NCBI GenBank assembly: GCA_965203805.1
Contig: OZ241917.1
Span: forward strand, 4,544,001-4,608,000
Origin: Candidatus Latescibacterota bacterium
Lineage (GTDB): Bacteria; Latescibacterota; UBA2968; GCA-2709665
DNA length: 64,000 bases
Reading direction: 5' to 3'
Numbering within the stretch: the stretch's first letter is position 1; every line of letters begins with the position of its first letter. Shown piece after piece: positions 2,544 through 24,798 of the stretch. A program made the translations under genes and the position numbers. The notes under the pieces were generated by a model. The model saw only the letters and a program-made list of their open reading frames with translations. It did no database searches and had not been told where the DNA came from.

Positions 2544-3010
2544 TGTGTCGCGTGGTCGACCGGTTGAAAGACGGACTTCCTGAAGGGGCCATCGTTAAGA
2601 GATGCTCGGCCGAGGGGTGCGCTGTTCCGTTGAAAGATGCCCCTGCGCCGCATCTGATTATGGATCTGGATCACCCTTTTTTCCGGCTGAAGGACAAGAT
2701 CCATTGCGATTTTCTGTTTATCAGTTGTGACTGCAATGTTGGATACAACTGGGTTGTTCCTCTGGAACTGAAAGGTGGCAGTCCTGATGCAACAGAAATG
2801 GTATCGCAGCTAATGGCAGGGTCAAATTTCGCGCAAGCCTGGATACCGGAAGATCACAAGATCCAGTTCCGCCCCGTGGGCGTCTTTGGTGGCCGCTTGC
2901 ATAAATTCCAAAGAGACAAGCTTAGAAGGGCTCGCATTTTGTATCGAAGGAAACGGTACGAAGTCAAACTCATACGATGTGGGACGCCGTTAGTTGTTGC
3001 TCTTGCGTAA
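2543..3010 (+). CDS. putative PD-(D/E)xK-type nuclease partner of the ATPase
   Basis: TAATG overlap with ATPase stop; CDFLFI...PLELKGG motif. Confidence 0.6.
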   Translation: MCRVVDRLKDGLPEGAIVKRCSAEGCAVPLKDAPAPHLIMDLDHPFFRLKDKIHCDFLFISCDCNVGYNWVVPLELKGGSPDATEMVSQLMAGSNFAQAWIPEDHKIQFRPVGVFGGRLHKFQRDKLRRARILYRRKRYEVKLIRCGTPLVVALA

Positions 3011-3021
3011 GAGAAAACCAT

Positions 3022-6000
3022 ATGACTGTTACTAGAAAGAAACTCATCGAAGTCGCCCTGCCGCTTGACGCGATCAACGCTGCGTCGGCTCGAGAAAAGT
3101 CGATCCGCCACGGCCACCCCAGCACCCTGCACCTCTGGTGGGCGCGACGGCCATTGGCGGCGGCGCGCGCTGTAATCTTCGCGCAGATAGTGGACGATCC
3201 GTCGGCCTGTCCGGAGGAGTTTCCAACTGAAGCGGACCAGGAAAAGGAGCGGCAGCGCCTGTTCCGGCTCATCGGGGAACTGGTAAAGTGGGAAAACACC
3301 ACCAACGAGGCCGTGTTGGAACGGGCACGTAAGGAAATCCGAAGGAGTTGGCGGAGGACGTGCGCAGACAATCGGGACCATCCACGCGCCGATGAGTTGT
3401 TCGACCCGGACAAGCTACCGGCCTTCCACGATCCTTTCGCCGGCGGCGGCGCGTTGCCGCTGGAAGCCCAGCGCCTTGGCCTGGAAGCCCACGCCAGCGA
3501 CCTCAATCCGGTGGCTGTGCTTATCAACAAAGCAATGATCGAAATTCCGCCGAAATTTGCGGGCAGACCGCCGGTCAACCCGGAGGCACGGGAGAAGTAT
3601 CTCGGCGCAGGGACATCCCATTCGACGAAACCCTTGCTGGGAGCGCGGGCGCCTGCCTGTGCGTTGCACGCAGACAGGTCCCGCCCGCATAGGGTCTGGC
3701 ACAGCCGCGGATATCTTCCTCATTTGGATCAATCCGAAATCATACAATGCATCACATTTCGCTTGGCGGATTCAATTCCAGCCAATGTTATTGCCGCCTG
3801 GAAGAGCGAATTGGCGCTTTCGGGTGAGGAACCAGCGAGCGATCCGCGTTGTGTGGAATTACGAAAAAAGATCGAACGATACGCCGGTCAGGGACACGGC
3901 GCTTGCTGGCTACAGGACGAGCGGATAGCAGATCAAGTCGAAAGGGCGCTATTGCACTTCGACGGCGTACGGTATCGCTTACTATCGTGGGCCATTATGC
4001 CCAATCACGTGCACGCATTGATCGAAACGACGGCCGGCTTTCCACTTGAAGGCGTCATTCATTCGTGGAAGTCTTACACAGCCAAGCAAATTAACAAGAT
4101 TCTCGGACGGCGCGGCCAGGTCTGGGAAGAGGATTACTTCGATCGTTATATCCGCGATCAGAAACATCTCGCTAACGAAATAGACTATATTGAGCAGAAC
4201 CCCGTGAAAGCCGGGCTTGTTGACAAGGCAACTGAATGGCCGTGGAGCAGTGCTGCAAGGAATGCGGAAGGAGCGAAATTTACGGGAGTTACAGAGGAAC
4301 ATGCGGACGGGACGGTGCTTGACGGAGTAAGAAAAAAGCATGCGGACGGGACGTCCGCGCTCCCAGGATTATGGACCGGTGCGAAGGGACTTGCGGAGGA
4401 CGTCCGTTACTACGGTCAGTGGATGCGCGACGAAGCCGAGAAACGTATAGGGCATCTTTATCCGAAGGTCGAAGTAACTCCTGAAATGGCGCAGGAACGT
4501 CCAGACCTTAAACAATACGAGGGCCGAAAGTTGACGGTGATTGCGTGGCTGTGGGCGCGTACGGTCAAGAGTCCGAATCCGGCATTTGCGGATGTCAATG
4601 TACCGCTCGTATCGACGTTCAGGCTATCGACAAAGAAAGGAAAAGAGGCATACGTCGAGCCGGAGATAGAGGGGCGCAGTTATCGGTTTGCGGTTCGGGT
4701 TGGGAGTCCAACGGACCCTGAGGCGGCCAAGCGGGGCACGACAGCGGGTAAACGTCAGGCATTTCGTTGCCTGATGTCTGGTGTGCCGGTACCGTACGAC
4801 CACGTTCGAAACGAGGGTAAGGCCGGACGAATGGACGCGCGATTGATGGCTGTTGTAGCCGAGGGTGATAGGGGAAGAGTATATCTGTCGCCGACAAGAG
4901 AACATGAATCAATCGCGAGAAAAGCAAACCCCGAATGGAAGCCTGAGTTGGCTCTTCCCAACAACCCGCGGGACTTCAAAACCCCGAATTACGGTCTTCC
5001 CACTTTCGCAGACCTATTCACCGACCGCCAACTCGTTGCGTTGATCACCTTTTCCGATCTCGTAGGGGAGGCATTGAAGCGAGTCAAGCGCGATTACCTT
5101 GCCGCGCGGGTCCCCGACAGACATCTGGTCGGGACACCAAAGTCACCGGATAATAACGCGCGCCTGCGTGAGGGAGGTAACGGCGCGTCAGCGTACGCGC
5201 AGGCAGTTGGTACGTATCTCAGTCTTGGGGTAAGCAAATTGTCCGACGCTCAATCATCGCTATGCCGATGGAAAGCCACAATGAATCAGTCGATTGCTAC
5301 GTTTGGACGACAGGCATTGCCCATGGTCTGGGACTACTCTGAGGCGAATGTGTTTGCTGGAATGGCCGGCGATCCTCTCGTGTCGATCAATAACATGATG
5401 CGCGTGGTTGACGAATTGCCGACTTCGATAGGTGGGCGGGCAAATCAGGGACCCGCACAATCTCTGGTACGTGATGATTCTCCCGTCGTCTCTACTGACC
5501 CCCCGTACTACGATAATGTCGGTTATGCCGATTTATCGGACTACTTTTACGTCTGGTTACGGCATTCGATTAGATCGAAATATCCAGAATTGTTCGCCAC
5601 ACTTGCGGTTCCTAAGACTGAAGAACTGGTCGCAACACCTTATCGTCACGGAAGCAAAGAAAAGGCGGAGACGTTTTTTCTGGACGGCATGGTTCAGGCT
5701 ATGAAATGCCTCGCTGAACAGTCGCATCCAGGCTTCCCGGTTTCGATTTACTACGCCTTCAAGCAGTCCGAAACAAAAGGTGAATTTGGTACATCCAGCA
5801 CCGGCTGGGAGACATTTTTGGATGCGGTAATCCGAGCCGGATTCACCGTCACAGGCACTTGGCCGATACGGACCGAGTTAAGCAATCGTATGATCGGATC
5901 AGGAAAAAACGCTCTCGCTTCCAGCATTGTCCTCGTCTGTCGCAAGCGTTTGGCTGGGGCTCCACTGGCAACCCGTCGAGAATTCGCAGCCGCATTGCGG

Positions 6001-6684
6001 GAAGAGCTTCCCGGTGCTATTGCGCAATTGCAAAGCGGTAACATTGCGCCAGTAGACCTTGCCCAGTCGGCAATTGGACCTGGGATGGCAGTGTATACTC
6101 GGTACTCCAAAGTGCTTGACGCGCAGGGCAACCGCGTATCGGTGGGCGATGCTCTTGCGCTGATCAATCAGACTCTGGACGAAGTACTCGCCGAACAGGA
6201 AGGAGAATTTGACTCTGACACCCGTTGGGCACTCGCCTGGTTCGAGCAGAACGGGTTCGATGAGGGGGAGTTTGGCGTGGCAGAGACCCTGTCCAAAGCA
6301 AAAAACACTAGCATCGACGGCATCGTTGAAGGAGGAATTCTCGCCTCACGCGCGGGCAGGGTTCGACTGTTGCGCCCAAACGAGTTGGCACGTGATTGGG
6401 AGCCAACCACGGACAAACGTCTCACTGTGTGGGAAGCAGTCCAATATCTGGTCCACGCCCTCGAATCCAGCGGCGAATTCGCCGCTGCTAAGCTGGTTCA
6501 TCAACTCGGCGGTCTCGCCGAAACCGCGCGCGAATTGGCTTATCGACTATATACGATATGTGAGCGCAAGAATCGCGCCGATGAAGCCCGATCCTACAAT
6601 GGCCTCGTGCAGAGTTGGCCGGAAATCGCTAGATTGGCGCGGGAACGGGCACCGGCGGAGCAAAGCGAGTTGTTTGGGGATTGA
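3022..6684 (+). CDS. DUF1156 adenine-specific DNA methyltransferase with in-frame RAYT/Y1 transposase insertion
   Basis: KKLIEVALPL...HLWWARRPLAAAR N-terminus, DPFAGGG SAM motif, TDPPYYD catalytic motif; ATG 3022 preferred over 2977. Confidence 0.92.
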   Translation: MTVTRKKLIEVALPLDAINAASAREKSIRHGHPSTLHLWWARRPLAAARAVIFAQIVDDPSACPEEFPTEADQEKERQRLFRLIGELVKWENTTNEAVLERARKEIRRSWRRTCADNRDHPRADELFDPDKLPAFHDPFAGGGALPLEAQRLGLEAHASDLNPVAVLINKAMIEIPPKFAGRPPVNPEAREKYLGAGTSHSTKPLLGARAPACALHADRSRPHRVWHSRGYLPHLDQSEIIQCITFRLADSIPANVIAAWKSELALSGEEPASDPRCVELRKKIERYAGQGHGACWLQDERIADQVERALLHFDGVRYRLLSWAIMPNHVHALIETTAGFPLEGVIHSWKSYTAKQINKILGRRGQVWEEDYFDRYIRDQKHLANEIDYIEQNPVKAGLVDKATEWPWSSAARNAEGAKFTGVTEEHADGTVLDGVRKKHADGTSALPGLWTGAKGLAEDVRYYGQWMRDEAEKRIGHLYPKVEVTPEMAQERPDLKQYEGRKLTVIAWLWARTVKSPNPAFADVNVPLVSTFRLSTKKGKEAYVEPEIEGRSYRFAVRVGSPTDPEAAKRGTTAGKRQAFRCLMSGVPVPYDHVRNEGKAGRMDARLMAVVAEGDRGRVYLSPTREHESIARKANPEWKPELALPNNPRDFKTPNYGLPTFADLFTDRQLVALITFSDLVGEALKRVKRDYLAARVPDRHLVGTPKSPDNNARLREGGNGASAYAQAVGTYLSLGVSKLSDAQSSLCRWKATMNQSIATFGRQALPMVWDYSEANVFAGMAGDPLVSINNMMRVVDELPTSIGGRANQGPAQSLVRDDSPVVSTDPPYYDNVGYADLSDYFYVWLRHSIRSKYPELFATLAVPKTEELVATPYRHGSKEKAETFFLDGMVQAMKCLAEQSHPGFPVSIYYAFKQSETKGEFGTSSTGWETFLDAVIRAGFTVTGTWPIRTELSNRMIGSGKNALASSIVLVCRKRLAGAPLATRREFAAALREELPGAIAQLQSGNIAPVDLAQSAIGPGMAVYTRYSKVLDAQGNRVSVGDALALINQTLDEVLAEQEGEFDSDTRWALAWFEQNGFDEGEFGVAETLSKAKNTSIDGIVEGGILASRAGRVRLLRPNELARDWEPTTDKRLTVWEAVQYLVHALESSGEFAAAKLVHQLGGLAETARELAYRLYTICERKNRADEARSYNGLVQSWPEIARLARERAPAEQSELFGD
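3598..4368 (+). mobile_element. REP-associated tyrosine transposase (RAYT/TnpA Y1, HUH) unit embedded in the MTase
   Basis: WHSRGYLPH, ITFRLADS, MPNHVH (HUH, 3997-4014), WKSYTAK, WEEDYFDRYIR, YIEQNPVKAGL, WPWSS; flanked by inverted REP-like ends; boundaries approximate. Confidence 0.85.
4261..4367. repeat. 39-bp-period tandem REP-like units ending in a GCGGAC-GGGAC-GTCCGC hairpin
   Basis: ATGCGGA at 4262, 4301 and 4340; the reverse complement of the last unit (CTGGGAGCGCGG) matches 3637-3648. Confidence 0.75.
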
Positions 6685-7529
6685 GGCTGGAAACGCTTCG
6701 CGAAGAGTCGGACACCTGGAAGCGTAAACGCCATTCGTACAAGTGTAAGAGAAGCATGCCCACAATCTTAGCCCTCTAGCGTTTCCATTCGACCTGCGGT
6801 CTGAATGCAATGCAGAGTTTACGTATCGGGTCTGCAGCATGAGCATTTTGCAAAGTCTACGCCGGATTCGTCGGACCGGCCAGCGTGTGAGGAGAGAGGC
6901 TCGAAATTGGGGCCGTGAGTCCATAGGGTTCATCAATCTCAATTGGCGCCATCTTGTGATTTCTGTCACGTTGATGGCTATTTTGTGGATCGGCACCTCG
7001 AGGCTTATAGATATCTGGAACTGGCTAGCCACCGACTTCTGGACTTGGCTGCGAATGGGCTCGAATGGGACCGAAACCCACAGCACGACCCTTCGCAATG
7101 TCGGTTTGCTCTTTGGCGGGGTATTGGCCTTACTGGTTGCGTTGTGGCGCAGTTGGGTAGCAGAGCGGCAAGCCAGAATTGCACAGCGAAATCTATTGAA
7201 CGAACGCTATCGACAAGGTGCCGAAATGCTTGACAGCAAAGTCTTGGCAGTTCGCTTGGGTGGGATCTACGCACTACAGCGTCTCGCAGCGGACAATCCG
7301 AAGAAATATCACATACAAATCATGCAGCTATTGTGTGCATTTGTACGTCATCCACCTGCCGTCGACGGCGAGAAGAATGAACCGTTTGCAGGCAACCAAA
7401 CCGATCTCGAATTGCGCAATGACGTGCAAGATGCCATAAACTCAATCAGCACATGCCATGCGCGACAGACCAAACTGGAGGTTGCAGCGGGCTTTCGACT
7501 AGTGGTCCATTTCGGAAGTATGTATCAGG

Positions 7530-8680
7530 TTAGGCAGCGATCTTGAGTTCGCGGAGCCTTTCTTCAAGGTCGCATTTGGTGAATCGCCATTTGAAGGGTC
7601 TCGAAGTTTGGTTATAGCGACGCTGAAATCCGAGGATGCGGTCTTCCATTTGCTTTCTGGTTGCGAGGTCGTTGGGCGTGAGCGCCTTTCTTTGAAGGAT
7701 GGAGAAGTAGATCTCGATCTGGTTGAGCCCTGCCTGCGGCAGGCAGGCAGCTTGCGTGGACGGGAAGATGGATGGCGATCAGGTTCGGGTAGGCGTTTTT
7801 GAGTCGTGCAGGGGAGGTCGACGGGTGATGGGAAGGCCCATTGTCGAGGATCCAGAACACGCGTTGTGCCGAAGCATAGGGTTCCTGCTTCATCACGAGG
7901 TCGACCAGCCTCTGAAAGGGTTCGATACCCGTGGTTTGATCCACACGACCAAAGACCCTTCCGCTCCTGATATCGAGTGCGGCCAGGTAGGCCACGGTCC
8001 CGTGGCGCTTGTAGTCGGACTCACAGTGAATCGGTTTTCCCGGTCCCGGAGGTGAAGAAGGGAACTCCCGCTCCAGGATCTGGAGCTGCGATTTCTCGTC
8101 CGCACTGAGAACGTAGTCTTTGGGCCCCAGGGGCGCGCCCTCATAATCCCCTTGATACAGATCCAAAACAGGGCCCGCTTTTTCCAGAAAGCGTGGATCT
8201 TTGATCGAGATCCACGATCGGTGAAACCAGGGACGAATGGCGTCCCGTTTGAGGAGACGCCACAGCGTGCTTTTAGAGATCGACAGGCTTGTCTCGGAAC
8301 GGATTTCCTGAAGCAGTTCCGCGAGGCTGAAGCGGGATAGCGGGATCTCCCGCACGGCTGGCAATTGGCAGGCGATGGCCTTAATTTCAGCGACGCGTTC
8401 GGGGGGGAAAAACCGGAGGCCTTCCACTACGAGGCCGATCCAGCAGTGAAAAACCCTCTGTAGCCCAGCGCTTTCGCCATTTCATCACCGTTCTGGGGTG
8501 CACGCCAACTGCTTGCGCAAGACGCTCGTGCGAGATATCCGGATGCTCCCACAAAACCAAGACCATCTTGGCCCTGTAAACAAGGGCGCTGGGGGCCGTT
8601 CGTTGTCGGGCTATCCTACCCGCTTCCGCGATATCCTGTGTCTCAAACTGCGGTTGATACTTCGGCTTCGGTCCAGGCAT
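7530..8680 (-). pseudogene. IS630 transposase (HTH orfA + DDE orfB) frameshifted by a 19-bp insert
   Basis: DRPRSGRP HTH end, GGTTTTTCCCCCCC slippery site near 8401-8414, SADEK, ILDN, HAS(W)LNQIE broken at 7729-7747. Confidence 0.88.
7729..7747. repeat. 19-bp palindromic insert CCTGCCTGCGGCAGGCAGG
   Basis: Removing it restores HASWLNQIEIYF and an open frame to the stop at 7530. Confidence 0.9.
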
Positions 8681-9761
8681 CGGTTACCTCCCAACACGGG
8701 CGGGGAGACAACCCTATTATAAGAACGCTACCGGCTACAGACAACATTATACCAATTTCTGAAATCGACCACTAGATCTGCGTGGCGTGAATCTGCGCGG
8801 TGCGGTTTTGCTCAAAGCACGGCTCAGCAAAGCGAATCTATCCAAAGCTGACCTAACCGGGGCGGCGCTAAGCGATGCCGATTTGGCTGGTGCAATCTTT
8901 GGCCACGCGATTTTAAACGATGCACGGCTTAACGGTGCAGACTTAAGCGGTAGCAAATTCAACAATGCACAAATGTGCAGAACCCAACTCCCCGGTGCGA
9001 ACCTGGCTAAATCGGACCTCTCGAACGCAGAACTCGAAGGTGCCCGAGTGTCCGAAGCGAAATTGTCAAAGGCAAACCTCTACAGAGCGAACCTAACCGG
9101 TGCATTCCTCCAGAACTCCGATTTGTCGGAGGCAAGGCTTCAATGCGCGAATTTGACCGCCGCATGGCTATATAATGCTAAGTTGGCAGGGGTGAATCTT
9201 TCAAACGCAATATTAAGCGAAGCGGACTTTAGTGGGTCAGATCTTTTGAATGCGAACCTCTCCAATGCCAATGTGTCCAACACACGGCTTTTCCCATTGC
9301 GACCTACATCGCCCCGAGTAGGCGAGAGACCGATTCGACGAGAGATCCCGACGAAACTCACTCAGGCTCAGCTTGATGTCGCCTGCGCAGAACCTGAGAA
9401 ACCACCAAAGCTGGGTGATGCCGTGGATGCGGAAACTGGCAATCCACTGGTCTGGCGTGGCAAGTCTCTGAACAGGCAAAGGTAGACGTATGAAAGTGCG
9501 CGATCTTTATTGTAGCCTGCGTCTGAGCTTGCAGTGACCCATAATTAAAATAAGTATCTCGTATCAAATGAATGTTTGGATGTCTGGGGATGGCGCGTCT
9601 GGCGACGTTCTCTACATTCTGCACCGAGCCGGTCGCCGCAACGTGTGCTGCACGAACAGTTCGGGTTGTTCGGTGAAGGAACCGACAAGCAATTGAGAAA
9701 AAGACGTAGTCGCTATCGAATTTCGTGCGGCAAATCTACGGGTGAGAAGGGAGAAAAAATC

Positions 9762-12593
9762 GTGACGTCAGATCGAACAAGGAGTTGGCGTTACCCGGGC
9801 GCTCGTTGGTGGAAATTCGACTTCCACACCCACACCCCCGAGTCGAAGGACTATGGTCAAGGACCCAACCAAACAGCCCTAAGGCAGATTAAACCGAAAG
9901 AATGGTTGTTAGCCGTTATGCGTGTTGGCGTAGATTGTGTGGCGATAACGGATCACAACTCGGGCGATTGGACTGACAGGCTTAAAGAGGCACTCCAGGA
10001 ACTAGAGTGTGAATCTCATCCGGATTTTAGACCGCTTTACCTGTTTCCTGGTGTTGAAATTACCGCCAACGGTGGAACCCATATATTGGCGATACTGGAT
10101 ACAAGCAAGTCGTCTGCCGATGTGGCGACGCTTCTTGGCGCAGTTGAGTACCACGGTGAACGCGGCGCTTGTGAAGTCACTGCAAACAAATCGCCAATTG
10201 GCGTCGTCGAAGCTATTGTTGACTTTGGTGGTATTCCAATTTTGGCACATGTGGACGAGCCAAGTGGAGCCTGGAAGCTTAAGGGAAACACGCTTAGCCC
10301 GCTGCTCGAATTCGATGGTTTGTTTGCAATGGAAGTTGTCGATCCGAACGCAAAAAAACCCGCAAAGTACCGACAGATGAAGCTAAAATGGGCAGAAGTT
10401 CTTGGATCGGACTCACACGACCACACCGGTAAGACTGGATCCCGTGTTCTTGGTTCCGACTACACATGGGTAAAGATGGCGGAACCGTCTCTCGAGGGAC
10501 TGCGCCTGGCATTGCTGGACGGCGGTGGGTTTTCAATTCGGCGTAGTGATGATTTGAGTCCTTTCGATCCTTTTAGATTGCCCGATCACTTCGTCGAGGC
10601 TTTGGAAATTGAAGATGCGCAATATATGGGACGAGGCGAATCGGCAAAACTCAGCTTTAGTCCGTGGTTAAACGCTATGGTAGGTGGACGAGGGACGGGA
10701 AAATCAACAGTAATTCATGGAATAAGGCTTGCTTCAAGACGAGAGCAGGAGTTGTCGAAATTTGAAGAAAACTGCGAGCCCCGCTTGATCTTCGAGCAAT
10801 TTAACCGGGTGCCTGGGGACCGCACGGACCGTGGCGGCTTGACAGATTCGACGGAAATCAGGTGGACCGTAATGCGAAACGAAGTTCGGTATCGCGTGCG
10901 TTGGCGGCGCGACGGCTGCGGGACAGTGGTAGAGGAGAACGCAGGCGAAAACTGGGTTCCGTCAAGCATTCAAAGTGTTACGCCCGAGCGCTTTCCAATC
11001 CGGATTTTTAGCCAGGGACAGATTGCGGCGTTGGCCGGCGAGAACCAACAGGCATTGTTGCAGGTGATTGACGATGCCGCTGGAGTGGTTAGGCTACAAA
11101 GGCAACTCAATGATGCTATAAGCGAATTCTATGCGGCGCGGACGCGGATTCGCGAGATGGATGGAAAATTAGTTCGTTGGGACGATCTAAAAGTTGATAT
11201 GCAGGATGTGGAGAGGAAACTGGCTCGTTTTGAGGAAGCCCGCCATGGGGAAGTTCTGACGAGCTACCAACGCCGAAGCCGACAGAAAAGGGAAATGGAA
11301 CGTCAGTTCGAAGCCGCCGATGGCACCGTACGGGTTATTGAAGATACAATTGCTGTGCTGCAATCCGAGGATGTTCCAGACAGGTTGTTCGACACGGATT
11401 CCGACGAAGACCGCGAAGCCATCGCCACCATCGATGCACTGGCTTCCGCAGTCCGCACGGCAGGCGAAACCCTTAAAGGAGCCGCGGAGAGTCTCCGAGT
11501 CGTCATCAACACACAACGGGACGAATTGTCAAAAAGCAAATGGCAGAGGGCTGTAAATCAAATCGTGTCTGAATACAAGCAACTGGTCGAAACACTTCAA
11601 TCGGAGGGTGTCTCCGATCCGAGCGAATACGGCCGACTCGTGCAGGAAAGGCAGCGACTCGATAGCGAAATCGAACTTCTGGAGTCGTTAAGTAAAGAAC
11701 GGGACGAGCTGAATGAGCGATCCCGAACGTTGCTCGGGCACGTACAAGAAGCTCGGCGCGCTGTGAGTGCTGCACGAGAGGACTTCCTTGAAGATGCACT
11801 GGCGCAGAACAACTTTGTAAGAATCCGAAACCTTTCATACGGCGATGACCCCCGTGTTATCGAGGGTGGGTTGCGCGAGGCATTAGGCGTTCTCGACGAT
11901 CGATTTCAGCTTGACATTTTGGATATGGATGACGAGTCGCGGGTGAAAGGAATCGTTGCAGAACTGCTGAATGACTTGCCGGACGAGTCTGCCCAACGCC
12001 GTTCTGAACTGGAACGCCGTATTGACAATCTAAAAGACCGCTTTGACTCTGCTTGTAAGGGTCGCGGAGACTTTGGAGGTCACTTCAACAACTATCTGGC
12101 GCGTGAATTTAACAATAAGCCGGAATTCCTTGACCGATTGCTTGCCTGGTTCCCGGAGGATTCGTTAAGGGTGGAATACAGCCGTCAAGGAGACGGTAGA
12201 GACTTCAGGCCTATTACGCAGGCTTCGTCCGGACAGCGGTCGGCGGCGATGCTGGCATTCCTACTCGCACACGGCGAGGAACCGCTGGTGCTGGACCAGC
12301 CGGAGGACGATTTGGACAATCACTTGATCTATGACCTGGTAGTACGCCAGATCCGCGAAAACAAACTGAGGAGACAAATCACAGTTGTGACACACAACCC
12401 GAACATTGTGGTAAACGGAGATGCCGAGATGTTGCATGCGCTTGAATTTGTGAGCGGACAGTGCATTGTGCAGCAATCTGGGTCTTTGCAGCAGGAGGCC
12501 ATGAGGGAGGAGGTCTGCCGCGTAATGGAGGGCGGGCGCGAAGCGTTCGAGCGCCGCTATCGCAGACTTGGACCGGAGCCAACCCATGTTTGA
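9762..12593 (+). CDS. PHP phosphoesterase + SMC/ABC-like ATPase (TrlF/Ppl-like defence protein)
   Basis: DFHTHTP, ITDHN, GVE, AH, GSDSH PHP motifs; GGRGTGKS, coiled coil, SSGQ, LVLDQPEDDLD, VTHN; GTG 9762 has an RBS. Confidence 0.88.
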   Translation: MTSDRTRSWRYPGARWWKFDFHTHTPESKDYGQGPNQTALRQIKPKEWLLAVMRVGVDCVAITDHNSGDWTDRLKEALQELECESHPDFRPLYLFPGVEITANGGTHILAILDTSKSSADVATLLGAVEYHGERGACEVTANKSPIGVVEAIVDFGGIPILAHVDEPSGAWKLKGNTLSPLLEFDGLFAMEVVDPNAKKPAKYRQMKLKWAEVLGSDSHDHTGKTGSRVLGSDYTWVKMAEPSLEGLRLALLDGGGFSIRRSDDLSPFDPFRLPDHFVEALEIEDAQYMGRGESAKLSFSPWLNAMVGGRGTGKSTVIHGIRLASRREQELSKFEENCEPRLIFEQFNRVPGDRTDRGGLTDSTEIRWTVMRNEVRYRVRWRRDGCGTVVEENAGENWVPSSIQSVTPERFPIRIFSQGQIAALAGENQQALLQVIDDAAGVVRLQRQLNDAISEFYAARTRIREMDGKLVRWDDLKVDMQDVERKLARFEEARHGEVLTSYQRRSRQKREMERQFEAADGTVRVIEDTIAVLQSEDVPDRLFDTDSDEDREAIATIDALASAVRTAGETLKGAAESLRVVINTQRDELSKSKWQRAVNQIVSEYKQLVETLQSEGVSDPSEYGRLVQERQRLDSEIELLESLSKERDELNERSRTLLGHVQEARRAVSAAREDFLEDALAQNNFVRIRNLSYGDDPRVIEGGLREALGVLDDRFQLDILDMDDESRVKGIVAELLNDLPDESAQRRSELERRIDNLKDRFDSACKGRGDFGGHFNNYLAREFNNKPEFLDRLLAWFPEDSLRVEYSRQGDGRDFRPITQASSGQRSAAMLAFLLAHGEEPLVLDQPEDDLDNHLIYDLVVRQIRENKLRRQITVVTHNPNIVVNGDAEMLHALEFVSGQCIVQQSGSLQQEAMREEVCRVMEGGREAFERRYRRLGPEPTHV

Positions 12594-13845
12594 TAGTCAA
12601 AAGGAACTGCTTGACAAGATTCAACTGGGCGAAGACACGTTTCTGGAATGCAAGGAGGTCCGGTTTTCGGGAAAACGTGTTTCCGACCCACATCGCGACT
12701 CTCTCGCCGACTCCCTTGCCGCCTTTGCAAACAGCCAGGGAGGAATCTTGGTGATGGGCGTGGAAGATGAATCACGTGAGATCCTGGGTATTCCCCTTGC
12801 ACGTCTCGATCTGGTGGAGCGATTCGTTCATGAGATTTGCCAGGACTCCGTCGATCCACCCCTTTCGCCGACTATAGAACGGCTAAGGCTGCCAGCGACC
12901 ATCGGAGAGGAGGTAGCGGTCATCAAGATAGATGTGCGCCCCAGTCTGTTTGTGCATCGAAGTCCGGGTGGTTACCTGCATCGAGTCGGAAGCGCCAAAC
13001 GGGTTATGCCCTCTGACTTTCTGGCTCGTCTATTTCAACACCGTAGTCAGATTAGCGTCATTCGCTTTGATGATCAGGCGGTTCCTCAAGCCGAACTGGA
13101 CGACTTGAACGATGATTTGTGGCAGCGGTTTTTAACTTCCCGGTCGCGCAATCAGCGCGACGACTTTCTTTTTAAGCTGGGCATGGCGCGAATGGAATCC
13201 AACGGCTCGATCCGTCCAACGGTAGCGGGCGTCCTGATGGCAGCCCGTGATTCCCGGACTTGGCTGCCTAATGCCTACATTCAGGCTGTCGCCTATCGGG
13301 GCGAGCAAATCCGAGTGGAGCAATCGGGTGACCCGTATCAGATTGATGCTGCCGATATCTACGGTCCGTTGGATACCCAGGTTACCGATGCCTGTCGATT
13401 CGTAATTAAGAATATGAAAACAGCCGCAGATAAGGAACTAGGGAGGCGTGACCGCCCGCAGTTCGACATTACGGCAGTTTTTGAGGCATTGGTCAATGCA
13501 GTCGCCCATCGTGATTACTCCATTCACGGCTCCAAGATCCGACTCAGGATATTTTCCAACCGGCTAGAATTGTATTCACCTGGGGCGCTACCAAATACGT
13601 TGACAGTCGAAAGTCTCCCATACAGACAGTCAGCTCGCAATGACGCGATATGCAGCCTGCTCGCCCGATGTACAGTGCCCGCAGACGTGCCCTGGCTTGT
13701 CACCGACCGTGAAACGCTTATGGACAAGCGGGGCGAAGGCGTGCGCATTATCTATGACAATAGTGAAACGCTTTCGGGACGATTACCTGAATACAGTTTG
13801 ATCGACGATAGTGAGTTGCGGCTCGTAATCTGGGCCGCGAAATAG
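12586..13845 (+). CDS. AlbA_2 (Schlafen-like) + HATPase_c_4 domain protein
   Basis: GEDTFLECKE, AFANSQGG, EALVNAVAHRDY, LELYSPG; overlaps upstream stop. Confidence 0.88.
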   Translation: MFDSQKELLDKIQLGEDTFLECKEVRFSGKRVSDPHRDSLADSLAAFANSQGGILVMGVEDESREILGIPLARLDLVERFVHEICQDSVDPPLSPTIERLRLPATIGEEVAVIKIDVRPSLFVHRSPGGYLHRVGSAKRVMPSDFLARLFQHRSQISVIRFDDQAVPQAELDDLNDDLWQRFLTSRSRNQRDDFLFKLGMARMESNGSIRPTVAGVLMAARDSRTWLPNAYIQAVAYRGEQIRVEQSGDPYQIDAADIYGPLDTQVTDACRFVIKNMKTAADKELGRRDRPQFDITAVFEALVNAVAHRDYSIHGSKIRLRIFSNRLELYSPGALPNTLTVESLPYRQSARNDAICSLLARCTVPADVPWLVTDRETLMDKRGEGVRIIYDNSETLSGRLPEYSLIDDSELRLVIWAAK

Positions 13846-13889
13846 CTCGTTGGCTCGCAGGCGACGTTGATTTCCGATGAATCAATCCA

Positions 13890-14327
13890 ATGAATATCTC
13901 AACCATCGGCTTTACGAGAAAGCCCGCAAGCCGTTTCTTCGGCTTGCTGATGCAGTCAGGCGCAAGGCGCGTCGTCGACGTTCGGCTAAACAACGCGTCG
14001 CAATTGGCCGGCTTTGCGAAGAAGGACGACCTGGCGTATTTCCTGCGGGAACTCTGTGGGATGGACTCCATCCATCTGCCCGAATTGGCGCCGACGAAGG
14101 AATTGCTGGACGATTACAGGAAACGGCGGTTTGACTGGGAGACCTGCGAGAACCGTTTCAACGGGCTGATGTGCGAGCGGCGGATCGAGGAGACGGTTCC
14201 GATTGAGATCGTCGCGGATGGTTGTCTGCTGTGCAGCAAGGATAAGCCGCACCGCTGCCATAGGCGGCTCGTGGCCGAGTATCTGAAACACCATTGGGGC
14301 GACGTGGAAATCGTCTACCTCGGATAG
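13890..14327 (+). CDS. DUF488 family protein
   Basis: ISTIGFT, VVDVRL, LLC...CHRRLVAE. Confidence 0.88.
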   Translation: MNISTIGFTRKPASRFFGLLMQSGARRVVDVRLNNASQLAGFAKKDDLAYFLRELCGMDSIHLPELAPTKELLDDYRKRRFDWETCENRFNGLMCERRIEETVPIEIVADGCLLCSKDKPHRCHRRLVAEYLKHHWGDVEIVYLG

Positions 14328-14395
14328 TTGGTTAAGCATGGATGTGCCGGCCTCGGAGACATTCATACCGATCATGGTAGACCGAATTGTAGAAG
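14212..14395 (+). repeat. direct repeat copy 1 (DUF488 3' end + MNT 5' end)
   Basis: Highly similar to 17565-17748 at a constant offset of 3353. Confidence 0.9.
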
Positions 14396-14663
14396 GCTTC
14401 CAGCCTTCTCGGCTCGTTCTCTTCGGTCCCATGCACATGGCACGGCCACCGACACAAGTGACGTAGACTTGCTGGTAATTCTGCCCAATGGGTCTGACAA
14501 GCGGGATACGGCTATCGAGGTCCGCCGCGCCCTGGGAGATCTCCCGGTTTGCAAGGAAATAGTGATTGCCACTCCCGGGGAAGTCACTCGTCGCGGTCAT
14601 CTTGTTGGTACCTTGTTGCGTTCAGCACTCCGCGAAGGAAAGGTACTGTATGAGCGATCCTGA
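14338..14663 (+). pseudogene. MNT nucleotidyltransferase antitoxin, frameshifted
   Basis: MDVPASETFIPIMVDRIV start in one frame and SDVDLLV...REGKVLYERS in another; intact paralogue at 17691. Confidence 0.8.
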
Positions 14664-14832
14664 ACACGTTGACCGAACTCGCCGATGGCTTCGTTTCGCC
14701 ATGGAGGATCTCGACGTTGCCCAATGCTTGCTGGCGACGGATGGCTCACGACCTCGCCCTGGAAGCGCGGACGTCTCGCTCACATGTCCCGTAGAATCCA
14801 CCGACTTTGGCGATTTTGTCTTAAGATTGTGA
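14650..14832 (+). pseudogene. truncated HEPN toxin
   Basis: MSDPEHVDRTRRWLRFAMEDLDVA HEPN-like start overlapping the MNT end; similarity is lost after ~36 aa. Confidence 0.65.
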
Positions 14833-14907
14833 CAGACACATTACCAATATTCGCCTCCCTATTTCGCTACTCCAACACGGTCACTCTCAAAAGAAGGTAC
14901 GGACGCC

Positions 14908-16044
14908 ATGTCTGAAGAACGCCCGGGCACCTGCCTGCATCTTCCGGATCTGTCGATAACCGGATTTCGGGGAATCGCGTCGCTAACCATTAAGCGGTTG
15001 GGTCGCGTTACGCTGCTTGCGGGAAAGAACAGCGTCGGCAAGACAACCGTTTTGGATGCCGTCCGGGTCTACGCGGCGCGCGGTCGCCCTTTCATTCTGT
15101 CCGACGTGTTGAAGAGCCACGAAGAGGTGGCTGCCGCTACGTATCGCGGTGACAAAGAGGGAATTGACCCTCATCTGGAGGCGCTCTTCCACGGACGGGA
15201 CGCTTCCGGGGAGGCGTCCTTCTCGATCGGCCCGGATAACGGTTGGGACCAGCTTAGAGTTGAAGCGATTCCCCCAGATAAAGCCACTCGTCCTAGTCAT
15301 GGACATCCCCCCGATTTTTTCGTGGCGCCAACAAGATTGCTTAAAATCGTCAGTCAAGACACTGAGCAGATAATTCCCTGGTATTTCTCTCCCTATGCGT
15401 TGAGTACCAAATTGGCCAAAAGTCGCCGTATATATCAGTATCTCTTGAATACGTCTGCAGATTACGACCTACCAGCCGCAATCGACTGCCGGTCCATGGG
15501 TCCGGCCCTGTTGAGCAAGGACGAAGTCGTGGTCTTTTGGGATGACATCGCGCTGACCGACGATGAGGAATGGGTGGTCAATTCCCTGCAGCCTGTTCTC
15601 GGCGACCAGGTACAGCGCATTGGGACAATCGGAGATAACAGTAACGGACGACGGGTGATCGCCAGAGTCCGGGGGCAGTCCTTTCCGGTCCCTCTCGAAA
15701 GCTTTGGTGATGGGGCCCTGCGCCTGTTCGGCACTGCCCTGATGCTGGTCAACAGCCGGGACGGCTTCCTGCTCATCGACGAAGCGGAAAACGGCATTCA
15801 CCATACCGTCCAACGCGATTTCTGGCGCATGGTACTTGAGACCGCGGACCAAAACAACGTGCAGGTTCTCGCGACAACGCACAGCTATGACTGTGTGCGA
15901 GGTTTTGCGCAGGCGGTTAACGAATGCGAGGGAATCGACGGGGGGCTTGTGCGTCTCGAACGTAGCGACAGGGAAATGTGGGCAGTTGAGTATTCGGAAG
16001 ATGATCTCAAGGTCGTTGCTGATCAACACATTGAAGTGAGGTAA
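14908..16044 (+). CDS. AAA_21 family ABC-type ATPase
   Basis: GKNSVGKT, FGDG, LLIDEAENGIH, TTHS. Confidence 0.9.
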   Translation: MSEERPGTCLHLPDLSITGFRGIASLTIKRLGRVTLLAGKNSVGKTTVLDAVRVYAARGRPFILSDVLKSHEEVAAATYRGDKEGIDPHLEALFHGRDASGEASFSIGPDNGWDQLRVEAIPPDKATRPSHGHPPDFFVAPTRLLKIVSQDTEQIIPWYFSPYALSTKLAKSRRIYQYLLNTSADYDLPAAIDCRSMGPALLSKDEVVVFWDDIALTDDEEWVVNSLQPVLGDQVQRIGTIGDNSNGRRVIARVRGQSFPVPLESFGDGALRLFGTALMLVNSRDGFLLIDEAENGIHHTVQRDFWRMVLETADQNNVQVLATTHSYDCVRGFAQAVNECEGIDGGLVRLERSDREMWAVEYSEDDLKVVADQHIEVR

Positions 16045-16048
16045 ATTG

Positions 16049-16663
16049 ATGGATAATGGTGACCGTGTCCTGCTTGTTGAAGGACAAGCCGACAAGCACG
16101 TCGTCTCACATCTATGCTCAAGATTTCAGCCAATGCCCCAATTCCATATAGAAGATAAGGGCGGTATCCAAAAGCTCTTTGATTCGATTATTCAGGAAGC
16201 CAGAGTTTCCGACCGCAAAGCCCTCGGTATTCTCTTAGACGTAATCGACGATTTGAACGCCCGATGGAGTGCCGTGACTGATCGGCTTCAAAAAGAGAAT
16301 ATCGAGGTTCCTCGTACCCCTGAACCAACCGGTACCTTAATCGACGGCACCGTCCGTACCCCTCGAGTTGGCATCTGGTTGATGCCCGACAATTCATCAC
16401 CCGGCGAACTCGAAGACTTCGTTGCGGAAATGGTTCCAGACGATGATCCAATATGGCCGCGAGCCCGCCGTTACATCGACTGCATTCCAGAGGCGGATCG
16501 TAAGTTTACTGAGAAAAAGATACAGCGAGCCAGGATCCACGCCTGGTTAGCGACTAGAAAGGAACCCAGGAAGATTGGCACCGCCATTTATACGGGAGAT
16601 TTGCGCGTTGATGGAAGACTCAGCACAGAATTCGCGGAGTGGCTAAGGGAATTGTTTAAATGA
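16049..16663 (+). CDS. DUF3226-like TOPRIM-type protein
   Basis: LLVEGQAD, GIWLMPDN..PGELEDF motifs; follows the ATPase. Confidence 0.75.
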   Translation: MDNGDRVLLVEGQADKHVVSHLCSRFQPMPQFHIEDKGGIQKLFDSIIQEARVSDRKALGILLDVIDDLNARWSAVTDRLQKENIEVPRTPEPTGTLIDGTVRTPRVGIWLMPDNSSPGELEDFVAEMVPDDDPIWPRARRYIDCIPEADRKFTEKKIQRARIHAWLATRKEPRKIGTAIYTGDLRVDGRLSTEFAEWLRELFK

Positions 16664-16667
16664 GCGA

Positions 16668-21474: not shown

Positions 21475-24400
21475 ATGGCCGTTACCAACCGTGAACGCGT
21501 CGAAAAGGCGCTCGATCTATTGAAGGCGGGATTGGGTCCATTCGTCGATCGCGAAGTCAAAAGTGCATTCAAAGCAAAGCGATTGGACCAATACGGCTTC
21601 CACCATTATCAGGATGACGCAAAACTCAAAGGCAAGCCCGTTACCGAGTGGGATGCGGCCGCTTTGTTGAAGTTGATGTGGTCCACGTGGAACGACGTGT
21701 TCAAGTATACGCTCGGGCATATCGAACGTAGTCTCGTCTCCGAACTTCGCGACTGGCGCAATAAATGGGCGCACCAGGAACACTTTTCGAGCGACGATAC
21801 GGACCGGACCCTCGACTCCGCGGAGCGGCTGCTTACAGCGGTTTCGGCATCCCAGGCGGACCAGGTCAATCGAATGAAGGTGGAACTTCGCCGTCTGGTA
21901 TTTGACGAACAGGTCCGGGGGGAACAACGCAAGGCGGGGGCGCTTGTCGAGTCCCCGGGCGCACGCGCGTTGAAACCCTGGCGCGAGGTGGCAATGCCGC
22001 ACAAGGACGTCGCTACGGGCGGGTACCAGCAGGCGGAGTTCGCAGCGGATTTATGGCAGGTTCATCTTGGAGAGGGTTCGGACGAGTATCGCGACCCACA
22101 GGAGTTCTTCCGCCGCACGTATCTCACAGAAAGCCTGAGACGTCTGCTGGAAGGAGCGGCGAGACGTCTGGCAGGTACGGGAGGCGACCCGGTGGTGCAG
22201 TTGCAGACCAACTTCGGCGGCGGCAAAACGCACTCGATGTTGGCGCTTTACCATCTTTTTTCCGGAATAGCGTCCGGAGAGCTCGAGGGCATGGACGAGG
22301 TGCTGGCGGGCGCTGCGGTCGAAACGCCCCCGTCCGTACGGCGCGTGGTGCTGGTTGGAAACCGAATCTCACCGGGGAATCCAGTGGAAAAATCGGACGG
22401 CACGGTGGTGCGTACGTTGTGGGGCGAACTTGCGTACCAGCTTGGCGGTCGCGATGCGTTCGAGCGCCTCCGCGCGGATGACGAGAAGGCCACAAATCCT
22501 GGCGATACGCTGCGGGAATTGTTCAACGACTACGGACCTTGCGTGGTGCTCATCGATGAGTGGGTGTCATACGCGCGGCAACTGCACGATGAAGGCGACC
22601 TGCCCGGCGGCAGTTTCGAGACGCAGTTCACGTTCGCGCAGGCCCTCACCGAGTCGGTAAAACTCACGGGCAACTGCCTGCTGGTGATTTCGCTGCCGGC
22701 TTCGGACACGTCGGATTCGGGTTCGCCGCATACGGAGGCTGACGATGCGGAGGTGGGCGGTATTCGGGGCCGAAGCGCCCTCGAACGCTTGCGAAATGTA
22801 CTCGGGCGTGTGGATTCGCCCTGGCGTCCGGCGAGCGCCGAGGAAAGCTTTGAAATCGTACGGCGCAGGCTGTTCGAGCCGCTCGCGGGGACGGACGCCT
22901 TTAAGCAGCGCGATGTGACCGCGCGCGCTTTCGCGGATCTTTATCGCGTACAGCACGGGAATTTTCCGGCTGAGTGCCGCGCCATGGATTATCAGAAGCG
23001 CATGATGGCCGCGTACCCTATCCATCCCGAGATATTCGACAGGCTTTACACGGACTGGTCCGCGCTCGCCAGGTTCCAACGGACTCGCGGCGTTTTGCGA
23101 CTGATGGCCACGGTCATCCACAGTCTTTGGGAGAGTGGCGACCGAAATCCACTCATTCTGCCGTCCACCATACCCATTGACGATCAGCGGGTGCAGAATG
23201 AACTGACGCGGTATCTGCCCGAGAATTGGACGCCCGTTATCGAAAAAGACGTTGACGGTCCGGGCGCATTGCCGCTCAGGATCGACGCCGAAGTACCGCA
23301 TCTCGGGAAGCTTTCTGCTGCAAGGCGCGTGGCACGTACGGTCTATATCGGATCGGCGCCGACCCGTGCGGCGGCTCAGCGGGGTATCGACGACGCGCGG
23401 GTCAAACTGGGTTGCGCCATGCCGGGGGAGACGCCAGCGGTTTTTACGGACGCGCTTCGCCGGCTTGCGACGGCGGCAACCTATCTGTACCAGGACGGAC
23501 CGCGCGTGTGGTACGACACGCAACCGACGGTTACCAAGCTGGCCGAAGACCGCGCCGAGCAGTTGAGGACCCATCCCGACGAGGTGGCGGGCGAACTGGA
23601 AAAGCGACTCGAATCGGACTTGCGCACGGCCGGAGATTTCGAGCGTATCCACTCACTCCCCCGTTCGGGGGCGGACGTGCCCGACGATCTGGACGCGCGG
23701 CTGGTCGTGCTATCAGCGGAGCAACCGTATTCGAGAGAGCCGGACAACGTAGCGGAAGCCGCCGCAAAAGAGATCCTGGAGATGCGCGGCAACACGCCGC
23801 GGCTTTACCGGAATACGCTGGTTTTCCTCGCGGTGGACAAAGTGCGGTGGCAGGATATGGATGAAGCGCTTCGCAAGTATCTGGCGTGGAAGTCGATTGT
23901 CGAAGACAGGGTCGAACTCAATCTGGATCCGCATCAAGGCCGCCAGGCCGAGACTCAAAGGAATGCAGCTGACGACACCGTGACCGCTAGACTGCCAGAG
24001 GCGTATCAATGGCTGCTTGTGCCCGAGCAGTCCGACCCGCAGGCGGCGATGTCATGGAATGCGATCCGTCTGACGGCGTCTGGAGGGCTCGCCGAACGGG
24101 CTTCGAAGCGTCTGCGCAGCGACGAGATGCTGGTAATGGGGCTCGGTGCGAGTGTGCTGCGCAAGCATCTGGACGATGTGCCACTCTGGCGTGGCGATCA
24201 TGTCGAGGTACGGCAACTCGTTCGGGATTTTGGTCAGTTTCTCTACCTGCCGCGCCTGGCTGGGCCGGATGTGCTAATGCGCGCTATAGAGAACGGCGTG
24301 AATACCACTGACTGGAAAATGTACGGCTGCGCTGTTGCGGAGAGTTACGACGATAGCGAGAGCCGCTATATTGGGCTCCGGCACGCCGAAACGCTCAGTG

Positions 24401-24798
24401 TCTTACCGGAGAGCAGGCAACTGGTCGTGAAGCCAATAGTTGCTGAACAACAAATAGACGCGGAGAGAATAATAGAAGAAGGACCGGTGACGCCGGGCGG
24501 AGGTGGGGAAGAAAACGGAGGCGAAGATGATCCACATGTTCCGGATCAGCCACCCGAGCAGAAAGCCCGGCGGTACCATGGCTCCGTGACACTGAATCAC
24601 CAGCGCGTGGGTCGTGACGCGAGCCAGATCGCAGACGAGGTGATCGCACATCTGTCGGGGATCGTGGGTGCGGACGTGACGGTTACGCTGGAGATCCACG
24701 CGGAAATACCCGATGGAGCCCCTGAAAACGTGGTGCGGACCGTTACCGAGAACAGCCAGACCCTCAAATTCGAGAGCCACGGGTTTGAGGAGTCGTAA
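21475..24798 (+). CDS. Swt1-like HEPN + DUF499 AAA+ ATPase
   Basis: N-terminal RNKWAH (Rx4H HEPN), KPWREV..PH.DV, QAEFAADL, TNFGGGKTH, LIDEW, YPIHP, FQRTRGVLR. Confidence 0.92.
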   Translation: MAVTNRERVEKALDLLKAGLGPFVDREVKSAFKAKRLDQYGFHHYQDDAKLKGKPVTEWDAAALLKLMWSTWNDVFKYTLGHIERSLVSELRDWRNKWAHQEHFSSDDTDRTLDSAERLLTAVSASQADQVNRMKVELRRLVFDEQVRGEQRKAGALVESPGARALKPWREVAMPHKDVATGGYQQAEFAADLWQVHLGEGSDEYRDPQEFFRRTYLTESLRRLLEGAARRLAGTGGDPVVQLQTNFGGGKTHSMLALYHLFSGIASGELEGMDEVLAGAAVETPPSVRRVVLVGNRISPGNPVEKSDGTVVRTLWGELAYQLGGRDAFERLRADDEKATNPGDTLRELFNDYGPCVVLIDEWVSYARQLHDEGDLPGGSFETQFTFAQALTESVKLTGNCLLVISLPASDTSDSGSPHTEADDAEVGGIRGRSALERLRNVLGRVDSPWRPASAEESFEIVRRRLFEPLAGTDAFKQRDVTARAFADLYRVQHGNFPAECRAMDYQKRMMAAYPIHPEIFDRLYTDWSALARFQRTRGVLRLMATVIHSLWESGDRNPLILPSTIPIDDQRVQNELTRYLPENWTPVIEKDVDGPGALPLRIDAEVPHLGKLSAARRVARTVYIGSAPTRAAAQRGIDDARVKLGCAMPGETPAVFTDALRRLATAATYLYQDGPRVWYDTQPTVTKLAEDRAEQLRTHPDEVAGELEKRLESDLRTAGDFERIHSLPRSGADVPDDLDARLVVLSAEQPYSREPDNVAEAAAKEILEMRGNTPRLYRNTLVFLAVDKVRWQDMDEALRKYLAWKSIVEDRVELNLDPHQGRQAETQRNAADDTVTARLPEAYQWLLVPEQSDPQAAMSWNAIRLTASGGLAERASKRLRSDEMLVMGLGASVLRKHLDDVPLWRGDHVEVRQLVRDFGQFLYLPRLAGPDVLMRAIENGVNTTDWKMYGCAVAESYDDSESRYIGLRHAETLSVLPESRQLVVKPIVAEQQIDAERIIEEGPVTPGGGGEENGGEDDPHVPDQPPEQKARRYHGSVTLNHQRVGRDASQIADEVIAHLSGIVGADVTVTLEIHAEIPDGAPENVVRTVTENSQTLKFESHGFEES

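Follow-up and report, generated by a model that had tools for sequence, protein, structure and literature searches.

RAYTs, the tyrosine transposases associated with repetitive extragenic palindromes (REPs), are puzzling in that they are single-copy, vertically kept transposases whose persistence and expression are unexplained. The locus described here raises a related question, namely why a complete RAYT should lie in frame inside a DNA methylase gene. It is found in a 64,000-nucleotide stretch of the genome of a Candidatus Latescibacterota bacterium (positions 4544001–4608000 of the single 5.87 Mb contig, G000:C1), hereafter the window, in which a REP–RAYT–REP cassette divides hmaB, the methylase gene of a candidate Hma defence system. 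A first interpretation made from the letters alone (the sequence-only reading) had offered two answers, an unspliced parasite sheltering in the methylase or a domesticated methylase–HUH fusion. We consider it probable that the insert is a REPtron that resides in a surface loop of HmaB and is translated with its host as one protein. The cassette is whole, with its catalytic residues intact, and has persisted at this position while synonymous sites diverged by about 1, both host and RAYT remaining under purifying selection. Its REP ends are conserved as nucleic acid hairpins rather than as peptide, and members of the same RAYT clade lie in frame in numerous other genes, among them essential genes present in a single copy. 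We infer in addition that the fusion is translated, that the RAYT is active and that the element benefits from this shelter.

A complete REP–RAYT–REP cassette lies in frame within hmaB

The host open reading frame (ORF; 2977–6684, forward strand) runs for 1235 open codons without a stop codon or frameshift across the insert. The frame is open from 2977, and the ATG at 3022 is the probable start of hmaB because homologues begin M..RKKLIEV. Pfam placed DUF1156 (PF06634, 111 bits) at residues 27–97 of the ORF and gave a weak D12 methylase match over the S-adenosylmethionine (SAM) motif, and the PADLOC HmaB model matched with 1506 bits in two stretches divided by the insert. The protein falls outside the NCBIfam equivalog DUF1156_antiphage because it scored 112.7 bits against a cut-off of 1000. 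On these profile matches we identify the ORF as the HmaB/DUF1156 methylase of an Hma defence system. The insert lies between methylase motifs I (FAGGG) and IV (DPPY), both of which are intact (Table 1). The host sequence PPVNPEAREK ends at nucleotide 3597 and WTGAKG... begins at 4372, and alignment with insert-free orthologues placed the extra segment between host reference residues ~197 and ~205.

The inserted domain matched Pfam Y1_Tnp at residues 332–408 (30.7 bits, cut-off 23) and the curated NCBIfam model REP_Tyr_transpos (NF047646; 87 bits, cut-off 80), and its score against the IS200 model NF033573 was 19 bits (cut-off 55). The only sequence match in the PDB was the Escherichia coli RAYT TnpAREP (4er8, E 4e-9), to whose HMH and Y residues the HVH and Tyr of the insert align. 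The NHVH motif lies at 4003–4014, its HUH residues (HVH) at 4006–4014, and YIEQNPVKAGL at 4186–4218 begins with the codon of the catalytic Tyr (4186–4188). In an AlphaFold model covering residues 16–715 the RAYT domain was folded, with a predicted local distance difference test score (pLDDT) of 70–88, and its top Foldseek match was again 4er8_A (E 6e-7, template modelling score on the target 0.67), followed by the IS200, IS608 and ISDra2 transposases. Two linkers with a pLDDT below 50 (model residues 195–237 and 417–455) are exactly the REP-coded stretches and are predicted to be disordered. Judged by these alignments, the insert is a RAYT with an intact predicted HUH and Tyr active site. It thus shows the curated model match, the HUH and Tyr residues, the Y1 HUH fold and the inverted flanking REPs by which RAYTs are recognised, and it has no dispersed REP family in its own genome.

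At the ends of the cassette, the right inner REP is an inverted copy of the left inner REP (15 nucleotides, 3637–3651 versus 4352–4366, 93% complementary). Each end also forms a hairpin of its own when folded as single-stranded DNA, with z-scores of −2.5 for the outer stem on the left (3645–3651/3682–3688) and −2.3 for the stem on the right (4342–4348/4352–4358). One stem pair, G-C in the left REP and A-T in its right counterpart, differs in a compensated manner; therefore each local hairpin is kept and the left–right pairing is weakened. In all these respects, namely the open frame, the position between the SAM and DPPY motifs, the intact Y1 core and the inverted ends, the sequence-only reading was borne out, and all of its coordinates held.

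From the left junction to the RAYT core, the window contains neither an ATG nor a GTG in frame. TTG codons at 3634 and 3664 are the only start-like codons in this interval, and no Shine–Dalgarno-like run was seen before either of them by eye, no dedicated scan having been run. When in-frame ATG, GTG and TTG codons upstream of the RAYT core were counted in embedded and stand-alone loci, no clear contrast emerged because Met residues of host and RAYT intrude.

The insert is shared by diverged alleles and is under purifying selection

Contigs from three public sequencing runs, possibly of the source sample, span positions 3117–5100 with zero differences. A fourth run from another study (X4) contains an allele that is ~93% alike and carries the same insert. 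The X4 allele lacks a 27-nucleotide palindrome in the left REP (27 letters omitted at 3651) and a 39-nucleotide tandem duplicate next to the right REP, and both features must therefore have been added later. No contig joining across 3598–4371 was found in runs X1–X4, although contigs drop rare variants, so that the excised alleles for which the sequence-only reading had proposed to look did not appear. As far as contigs can show, the insert is confirmed to be no assembly chimera. The 27-nucleotide palindrome itself has a perfect stem and was also found in P0002, P0018 and P0020, where it reads as ...APACALHADRS...; it could represent a very small mobile hairpin whose targets are REP loops.

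We compared the window with L083–L085, the three filled relatives nearest to it, to obtain the ratio of nonsynonymous to synonymous substitution rates (dN/dS). The ratio was 0.083–0.093 for the RAYT core, 0.043–0.092 for the N-terminal part of the host and 0.084–0.094 for its C-terminal part. By the codon comparisons, purifying selection on the RAYT core is as strong as that on the host (dN/dS ~0.09), contradicting neutral evolution. The RAYT and the host N-terminal part alike have a dS of ~1.0–1.4, and the insert therefore has the same age as these alleles. For the REP linkers dN/dS was 0.27–1.19, and against L083 their dS was 0.08–0.24 at a nucleotide identity of 0.90–0.91; with 23–35 codons only, these values are indicative of constraint on the linkers as DNA and not as peptide.

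These results bear on the simplest explanation, that the arrangement is an artefact of assembly or a one-off, neutral in-frame insertion. The element's own frame is open, and a random insertion would fall in sense and in frame with a chance of ~1/6. We give this explanation next to no credence, as contigs from three runs and a diverged allele of another study carry the insert, its dN/dS is ~0.09, the host motifs are intact and hundreds of homologous cases exist.

The same RAYT clade occurs in frame in many host genes

We searched proteins of 679–2162 residues with the insert alone and obtained 551 long proteins at E ≤ 1e-3. The 120 best-scoring of the 551 almost all combined DUF1156 with Y1_Tnp; the remaining hosts in this subset were PF01555 and PF02384/PglX methylases, MttB, UDP-glucose dehydrogenase and a NOV_C protein. 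When 126 RAYT domains from 123 proteins were placed on an empty DUF1156 reference, 79 fell in the loop occupied in the window (site 1), 26 in a loop ~250 residues downstream (site 2), one elsewhere in DUF1156 and 20 in other hosts, and four proteins carried a RAYT at both DUF1156 sites. The survey of this loop that the sequence-only reading had called for thus established that the insert is no one-off. The first HUH His was kept in 126 of 126 domains, the second in 125 of 126 and the Tyr in 126 of 126.

A second sample of 80 loci was drawn from contigs of one genome per species and picked by RAYT peptide words alone. A RAYT was scored as embedded when an open frame extended at least 100 residues beyond it on at least one side. 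By this definition 39 of the 80 loci were embedded, and in 29 the frame was open on both sides. Both HUH His residues were kept in all 39 and the Tyr in 38, the other locus having a gap. According to Pfam and phmmer, the commonest host in this species sample was valyl-tRNA synthetase (ValRS), occupied at three different sites in 18 of the 39 loci (L099, L102, L110, L113 and 14 more). DUF1156 followed with four loci, CarB with three (L121, L126 and L137), and alanyl-tRNA synthetase (AlaRS; L108 and L120) and MmeI/Eco57I-like methylases with two each. NAD synthase (NadE; L136), uracil-DNA glycosylase (UDG), a GcvT-like protein, a U32 peptidase and a Type ISP enzyme accounted for one locus each, and in five the host had no recognisable Pfam family. 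The valS, alaS, carB and nadE cassettes come from Planctomycetota and relatives. Embedded and stand-alone copies alike have one or two inverted REP hairpins per end, many with the GTAG or GTGG head of classical REPs.

Most of the hmaB genes compared are empty. The insert was absent from ~107 of the 120 closest HmaB relatives and from 79 of 80 fetched hmaB loci, and none of these 80 contained a disruptive RAYT.

The host spectrum bears on the second answer given by the sequence-only reading, in which the RAYT would be a working part of HmaB that supplies the Hma system with hairpin-directed nicking or joining of single-stranded DNA. Many hosts are indeed DNA methylases of defence or restriction–modification systems (DUF1156, PF01555, PF02384/PglX, MmeI-like and Type ISP), the RAYT has an intact active site and evolves under purifying selection, and HmaB has retained the insert while diverging by a dS of ~1. 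However, the same clade sits in ValRS, AlaRS, CarB, NadE and others, where DNA nicking would be senseless. In addition, occupancy is patchy on the host tree and most HmaB proteins do without the insert, two different loops are used with two copies in some proteins, and the preservation of the REP ends as DNA hairpins is a trait of a mobile cassette and not of a fused domain. A domesticated fusion is therefore highly improbable. The idea of a sheltering, unspliced parasite fared better, being supported by the recurrence, the purifying selection, the constraint on REP DNA and the absence of any detected intein domain or ribozyme (see below), but not in its emphasis on methylases, given the place of ValRS in the species sample.

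The junctions argue for reading through rather than removal

Across hosts, the embedded unit has the layout host-(K)Y-LGARASRPH-Kx-WHSRGYLPH...NPVKAGL...WxWSSA...AGGTPALPG-(F/L)-host. The peptides LGARASRPH and AGGTPALPG represent the two orientations of one 25-nucleotide REP, which is clearly visible in L027. Elsewhere the reading frame of the outer REPs differs, giving the peptides GNAGVSPA, GQDGRAP or GRDVRNP. Because the REPs are read in different frames depending on the host, the linker peptides have no conserved sequence.

These observations bear on the possibility that the insert is removed before the protein acts, whether through RNA processing over the long-range REP stem, through protein splicing of a novel type or through frequent precise excision of the DNA by the RAYT. 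Such a step would suit a spectrum of hosts that, with its essential enzymes and conserved proteins, resembles that of inteins, and relatives of the IS200/IS605 family excise precisely (PMC5027513). In the predicted RNA fold the REPs can close the whole insert (z −2.4). Against removal, no Rfam family, introns included, matched positions 3300–4700 on either strand at E ≤ 1, and no Hint/intein domain was found in the 26 embedded proteins scanned (P0001 and 25 others). The junction peptides are not conserved, the compensated change keeps the local hairpins at the expense of left–right pairing, and no contig bridged the insert in the four runs, with the caveat on rare variants given above. Furthermore, the frame is open across both REPs in every case, as predicted if the unit is translated through. 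We regard removal as quite unlikely. A bolder, speculative version of our proposal would have the REP pair direct removal by a novel step acting on RNA or DNA.

Elements move between sites and are exchanged between alleles

When the 126 RAYT domains were placed on a tree and labelled by location (site 1, site 2 or a different host), like labels clustered. The best tree nevertheless required 11 changes, and well-supported branches forced at least three site or host switches per group. Exchange within the DUF1156 group was also evident. L083 and L084 have a host dS of ~1 and a RAYT dS of 0.118, and L083 is a mosaic within the element. L084 and L085 are diverged hmaB paralogues 5.7 kb apart on the same contig whose cassettes are ~99% identical, and the identical tract reaches ~150–200 nucleotides past either end of the element, a sign of gene conversion. 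These alignments show that diverged host alleles have swapped whole elements or parts of them, through recombination or gene conversion. In a tree built from the host C-terminal half, occupancy of site 1 changed 27 times (at least 16 of these forced by supported branches) and that of site 2 changed 14 times, counts that are a sign of patchiness only, because the rows came from two differently aimed searches and the C-terminal half may recombine.

Some relatives contain a solo REP or a REP pair in place of the cassette, at site 1 in P0177 and at site 2 in P0143, P0040, P0020 and others. The window itself has an extra segment at site 2 (5098–5148). Its position and length, together with the occurrence of REP-only inserts in relatives, lead us to term this segment a REP-like remnant. 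Its hairpin alone is not significant (z −0.5). The segment suggests that an earlier occupant of site 2 has since been lost.

Comparison of filled and empty alleles placed the extra segment, as noted above, but did not yield the clean empty site that the sequence-only reading had sought. The closest insert-free alleles are 76% identical and differ in loop length, so that neither the insertion point nor a target duplication can be defined. The K-x-L-x-A-R of empty loops and the REP-coded K-Y-L-G-A-R suggested that the REP tail might resemble its target, and this idea was dropped. In 73 empty genes the best match of the 15-nucleotide REP tail within site 1 was 7–11 of 15. The median gene had 32 other positions that matched equally well, and the gene-wide maximum was 11–13 of 15.

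REP families in the window's genome and in genomes with a RAYT-bearing valS

The genome contains two RAYTs, the insert and a paralogue with 48% identity. The paralogue is a stand-alone RAYT of 201 residues located ~10 kb upstream of the window (G000:C1 ~4533450–4534055; L002 1450–2055). Its REP family, GAGGGCATCCCTGCCCTC, has 16 exact copies in the genome. Fourteen of these surround the paralogue, ranging from ~11 kb upstream of the window to its position 34056, and are confined to a ~45-kb island; those in the window occur at 24862–25214 and 33933–34153. The hairpins at 24850–24880, taken by the sequence-only reading for relatives of the insert's REPs, belong to this different family of the second RAYT.

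Five genomes with a RAYT-bearing valS were checked as well. In all five this was the only valS found, and the ValRS-embedded RAYT was the only full-length RAYT. Dispersed copies of the REP core numbered 36 and 37 in two of these genomes (2 and 1 in the reversed control) and 1, 0 and 3 in the other three.

A single RAYT per genome inside the sole ValRS (in four of the five genomes), the dispersed REPs in two of them and the strong purifying selection would all suit a RAYT that serves its host as a domesticated housekeeping enzyme, its placement in an expressed gene providing low, coupled expression rather than reflecting parasitism. RAYTs have been argued to be domesticated (10.1101/119735). 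However, the window's genome has no REP population to serve, the element rides a horizontally mobile defence system and is exchanged between alleles, and most HmaB relatives lack it. We regard this explanation as unlikely for the insert; a host-serving RAYT is possible in genomes with REP populations, and not obviously here. In the window's genome, the element would instead be a solitary passenger of the mobile Hma system.

A model for residence in a host reading frame

According to our model, the REPtron would occupy a permissive loop and be translated through together with its host, the RAYT forming a self-folding internal domain tethered by floppy, REP-coded linkers. The RAYT would be made as an internal domain because it has no obvious start of its own. 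The element would gain expression through the host gene as well as protection from deletion, because imprecise loss would destroy an indispensable host gene, and the cost to the host would be that it tolerates a bulky loop. More generally, we lean towards the view that this RAYT/REP clade leads an intein-like life without splicing. Its members would be translated domains in sole-copy essential genes and in defence methylases, expressed only via the host start and protected from deletion by the indispensability of the host. In some genomes the embedded copy would be the only RAYT available to mobilise dispersed REPs.

Several observations weigh against resident REPtrons as the explanation. The insert's REP has no other copies in the 5.87 Mb genome beyond chance matches: its 15-mer has two exact matches (one being itself) and six with one mismatch, and the 28-nucleotide right REP is unique. 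Because the REP is unrepeated, the insert lacks the property that gives REP-associated transposases their name, and its current activity is doubtful. Four host residues flank the element, compared with 9–14 loop residues in empty alleles, and there was neither a clean empty site nor a close (>90%) empty allele among the alleles compared. Public RNA runs were looked up for the stretch, and none was listed as holding it. The figure of 39 of 80 is a count of embedded loci only, made per species and not per event. Because related planctomycetes share orthologous ValRS insertions, independent events are far fewer, at least ~15 host–site combinations. The recurrent use of two loops in DUF1156 need not mean that insertion was repeated, since recombination could have spread one or two old insertions, and the patchiness on the host tree may come from shuffling of the variable C-terminal half.

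The hmaB gene lies in a candidate Hma neighbourhood

Downstream of hmaB lie a gene for HmaC and one for an SNF2 helicase, a candidate HmaA that matches DrmD better than HmaA (Table 1). The N-terminal domain of HmaC is a Swt1-like HEPN domain (residues 11–124) fused to the DUF499 ATPase. The spacing between hmaB and hmaC comprises ~15 kb of other genes (6839–21474), including, besides those in Table 1, a pentapeptide protein and an AbiEii-like ATPase. The Hma system was defined by Payne et al. 2021 (PMC8565338), and these systems have been described as often harbouring further defence genes among the hma genes (10.1101/2024.01.29.577857); the gene block found here fits that published pattern. 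The genome encodes four distant DUF1156 paralogues (33–38% identity), and no second close HmaB was found in its 5.87 Mb. The closest hmaB alleles are scattered over Latescibacterota, Gemmatimonadota, Meiothermus, Proteobacteria and others, a distribution from which the Hma system itself appears to be horizontally mobile. Further downstream, at 34523–44733, are three tandem units of ~3.5 kb that are 70–88% alike (repeat families D1–D11), presumably three paralogous genes in a row.

Table 1. Features of the insert, its host gene and the surrounding window
Feature	Position	Strand	Basis or remark
hmaB (DUF1156) DNA methylase with insert	3022..6684	+	ORF, Pfam, PADLOC
SAM-binding motif I, FAGGG	3436..3450	+	upstream of insert; invariant in the alignment
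Whole in-frame REP–RAYT–REP cassette	3598..4371	+	codons 208–465; extra relative to insert-free orthologues
Outer left REP, degenerate, read as LGAGTSHS	3601..3624	+	homologous to LGARASRPH-type REPs of relatives
Inner left REP: tail CTGGGAGC, stem 3645–3651/3682–3688	3637..3688	+	interrupted by nested palindrome
27-nucleotide palindrome in left REP loop	3652..3678	+	missing from X4 allele and L083–L085
RAYT (Y1 HUH) domain	3682..4272	+	residues 236–432
39-nucleotide tandem duplicate with partial right REP	4300..4338	+	missing in X4, L084 and L085; present in L083
Inner right REP: hairpin 4342–4358 and tail GCTCCCAG 4359–4366	4339..4366	+	read as HADGTSALP
Degenerate REP-like remnant at DUF1156 site 2, read as LAARVPDRHLVGTPKSP	5098..5148	+	11 residues extra relative to empty alleles
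Catalytic motif IV, DPPY	5497..5508	+	nearly invariant in the alignment
DDE transposase	7612–8427		between hmaB and hmaC
Ppl-like ATPase	9576–12593		between hmaB and hmaC
Schlafen/AlbA protein	12568–13845		between hmaB and hmaC
HmaC, DUF499 ATPase with N-terminal HEPN	21475..24798	+	PADLOC HmaC, 1124 bits
SNF2 helicase, candidate HmaA	25711..28734	+	PADLOC DrmD, 374 bits, above HmaA, 136 bits

Implications and comparison with known systems

If our proposal is correct, residence in indispensable reading frames would explain the persistence and expression of RAYTs, and the clade would represent a bacterial class of intein-like selfish domains that needs no splicing. It could also be the source of the in-frame REPs of Rickettsia, Opitutus and other genomes. 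Hundreds of methylase–transposase and ValRS–transposase fusions in the databases, now discarded as annotation errors, may be real. Hma, BREX-like and Type I/ISP methylases would then tolerate an enzyme of 250 residues in defined loops, which would be useful for engineering.

Our statements on published work refer to the portions of each text that were available. A large phylogenomic study of the superfamily left out unexpectedly long proteins, which it took for fusions or mistaken annotations (PMC6006769). REPs that lie in frame but have no transposase are known from Rickettsia, Opitutus and others, including tRNA synthetase and repair genes, and are thought to be translated and tolerated (PMC3733652). 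No account of a RAYT or REPtron lying in frame within another gene was found in the available full-text literature, of which the supplementary lists (Additional files 3 and 4 of PMC3733652; Figure S1 of PMC6006769) could hold cases. What is new is thus, apparently, a known element with an undescribed, intein-like and apparently non-splicing way of life.

The insert shares with known REPtrons and RAYTs (TnpAREP, the E. coli YafM type, 4er8) the Y1 HUH fold, the RAYT motifs, the inverted REPs and a number of about one copy per genome. However, known REPtrons are stand-alone and intergenic with genome-wide REPs, whereas this element sits within the reading frame of its host, lacks an obvious start codon and has a REP without further copies in the genome. 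TIRtrons, whose RAYT-like genes are termed TIRYTs (Di Nocera et al. 2013, PMC3733652), have terminal inverted repeats that may overlap the ORF and often no repeat family, as in our case, but they are described, in the text available, as separate genes and not as an in-frame part of another protein. Intragenic REPs and the Rickettsia palindromic elements (RPE) are likewise palindromic mobile DNA in frame within ORFs (PMC3733652), and the REP-only inserts in the same two DUF1156 loops resemble them. These elements measure 20–150 bp and carry no enzyme, in contrast to ~770 bp with a whole transposase here. In the Hma papers (PMC8565338; 10.1101/2024.01.29.577857) the embedded genes lie, in the portions available, between hma genes and not inside the hmaB frame as here; the host HmaB, the downstream HmaC and SNF2 helicase and the intervening defence genes are shared.

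The Y1 HUH fold and hairpin ends are common to our element, the IS200/IS605 family and IStrons. IStrons also spare the host gene in which they sit. However, the insert scores below the cut-off of the IS200 model, has no TnpB or ribozyme and is not multicopy, and the distinct left and right hairpins of IS200/IS605 are replaced by inverted copies of one REP. Inteins with homing endonucleases differ in having a Hint domain, conserved junction nucleophiles and splicing, of which we saw no sign, but they too are selfish, enzyme-coding, in-frame inserts that reside in genes that are hard to lose and undergo co-conversion of their flanks.

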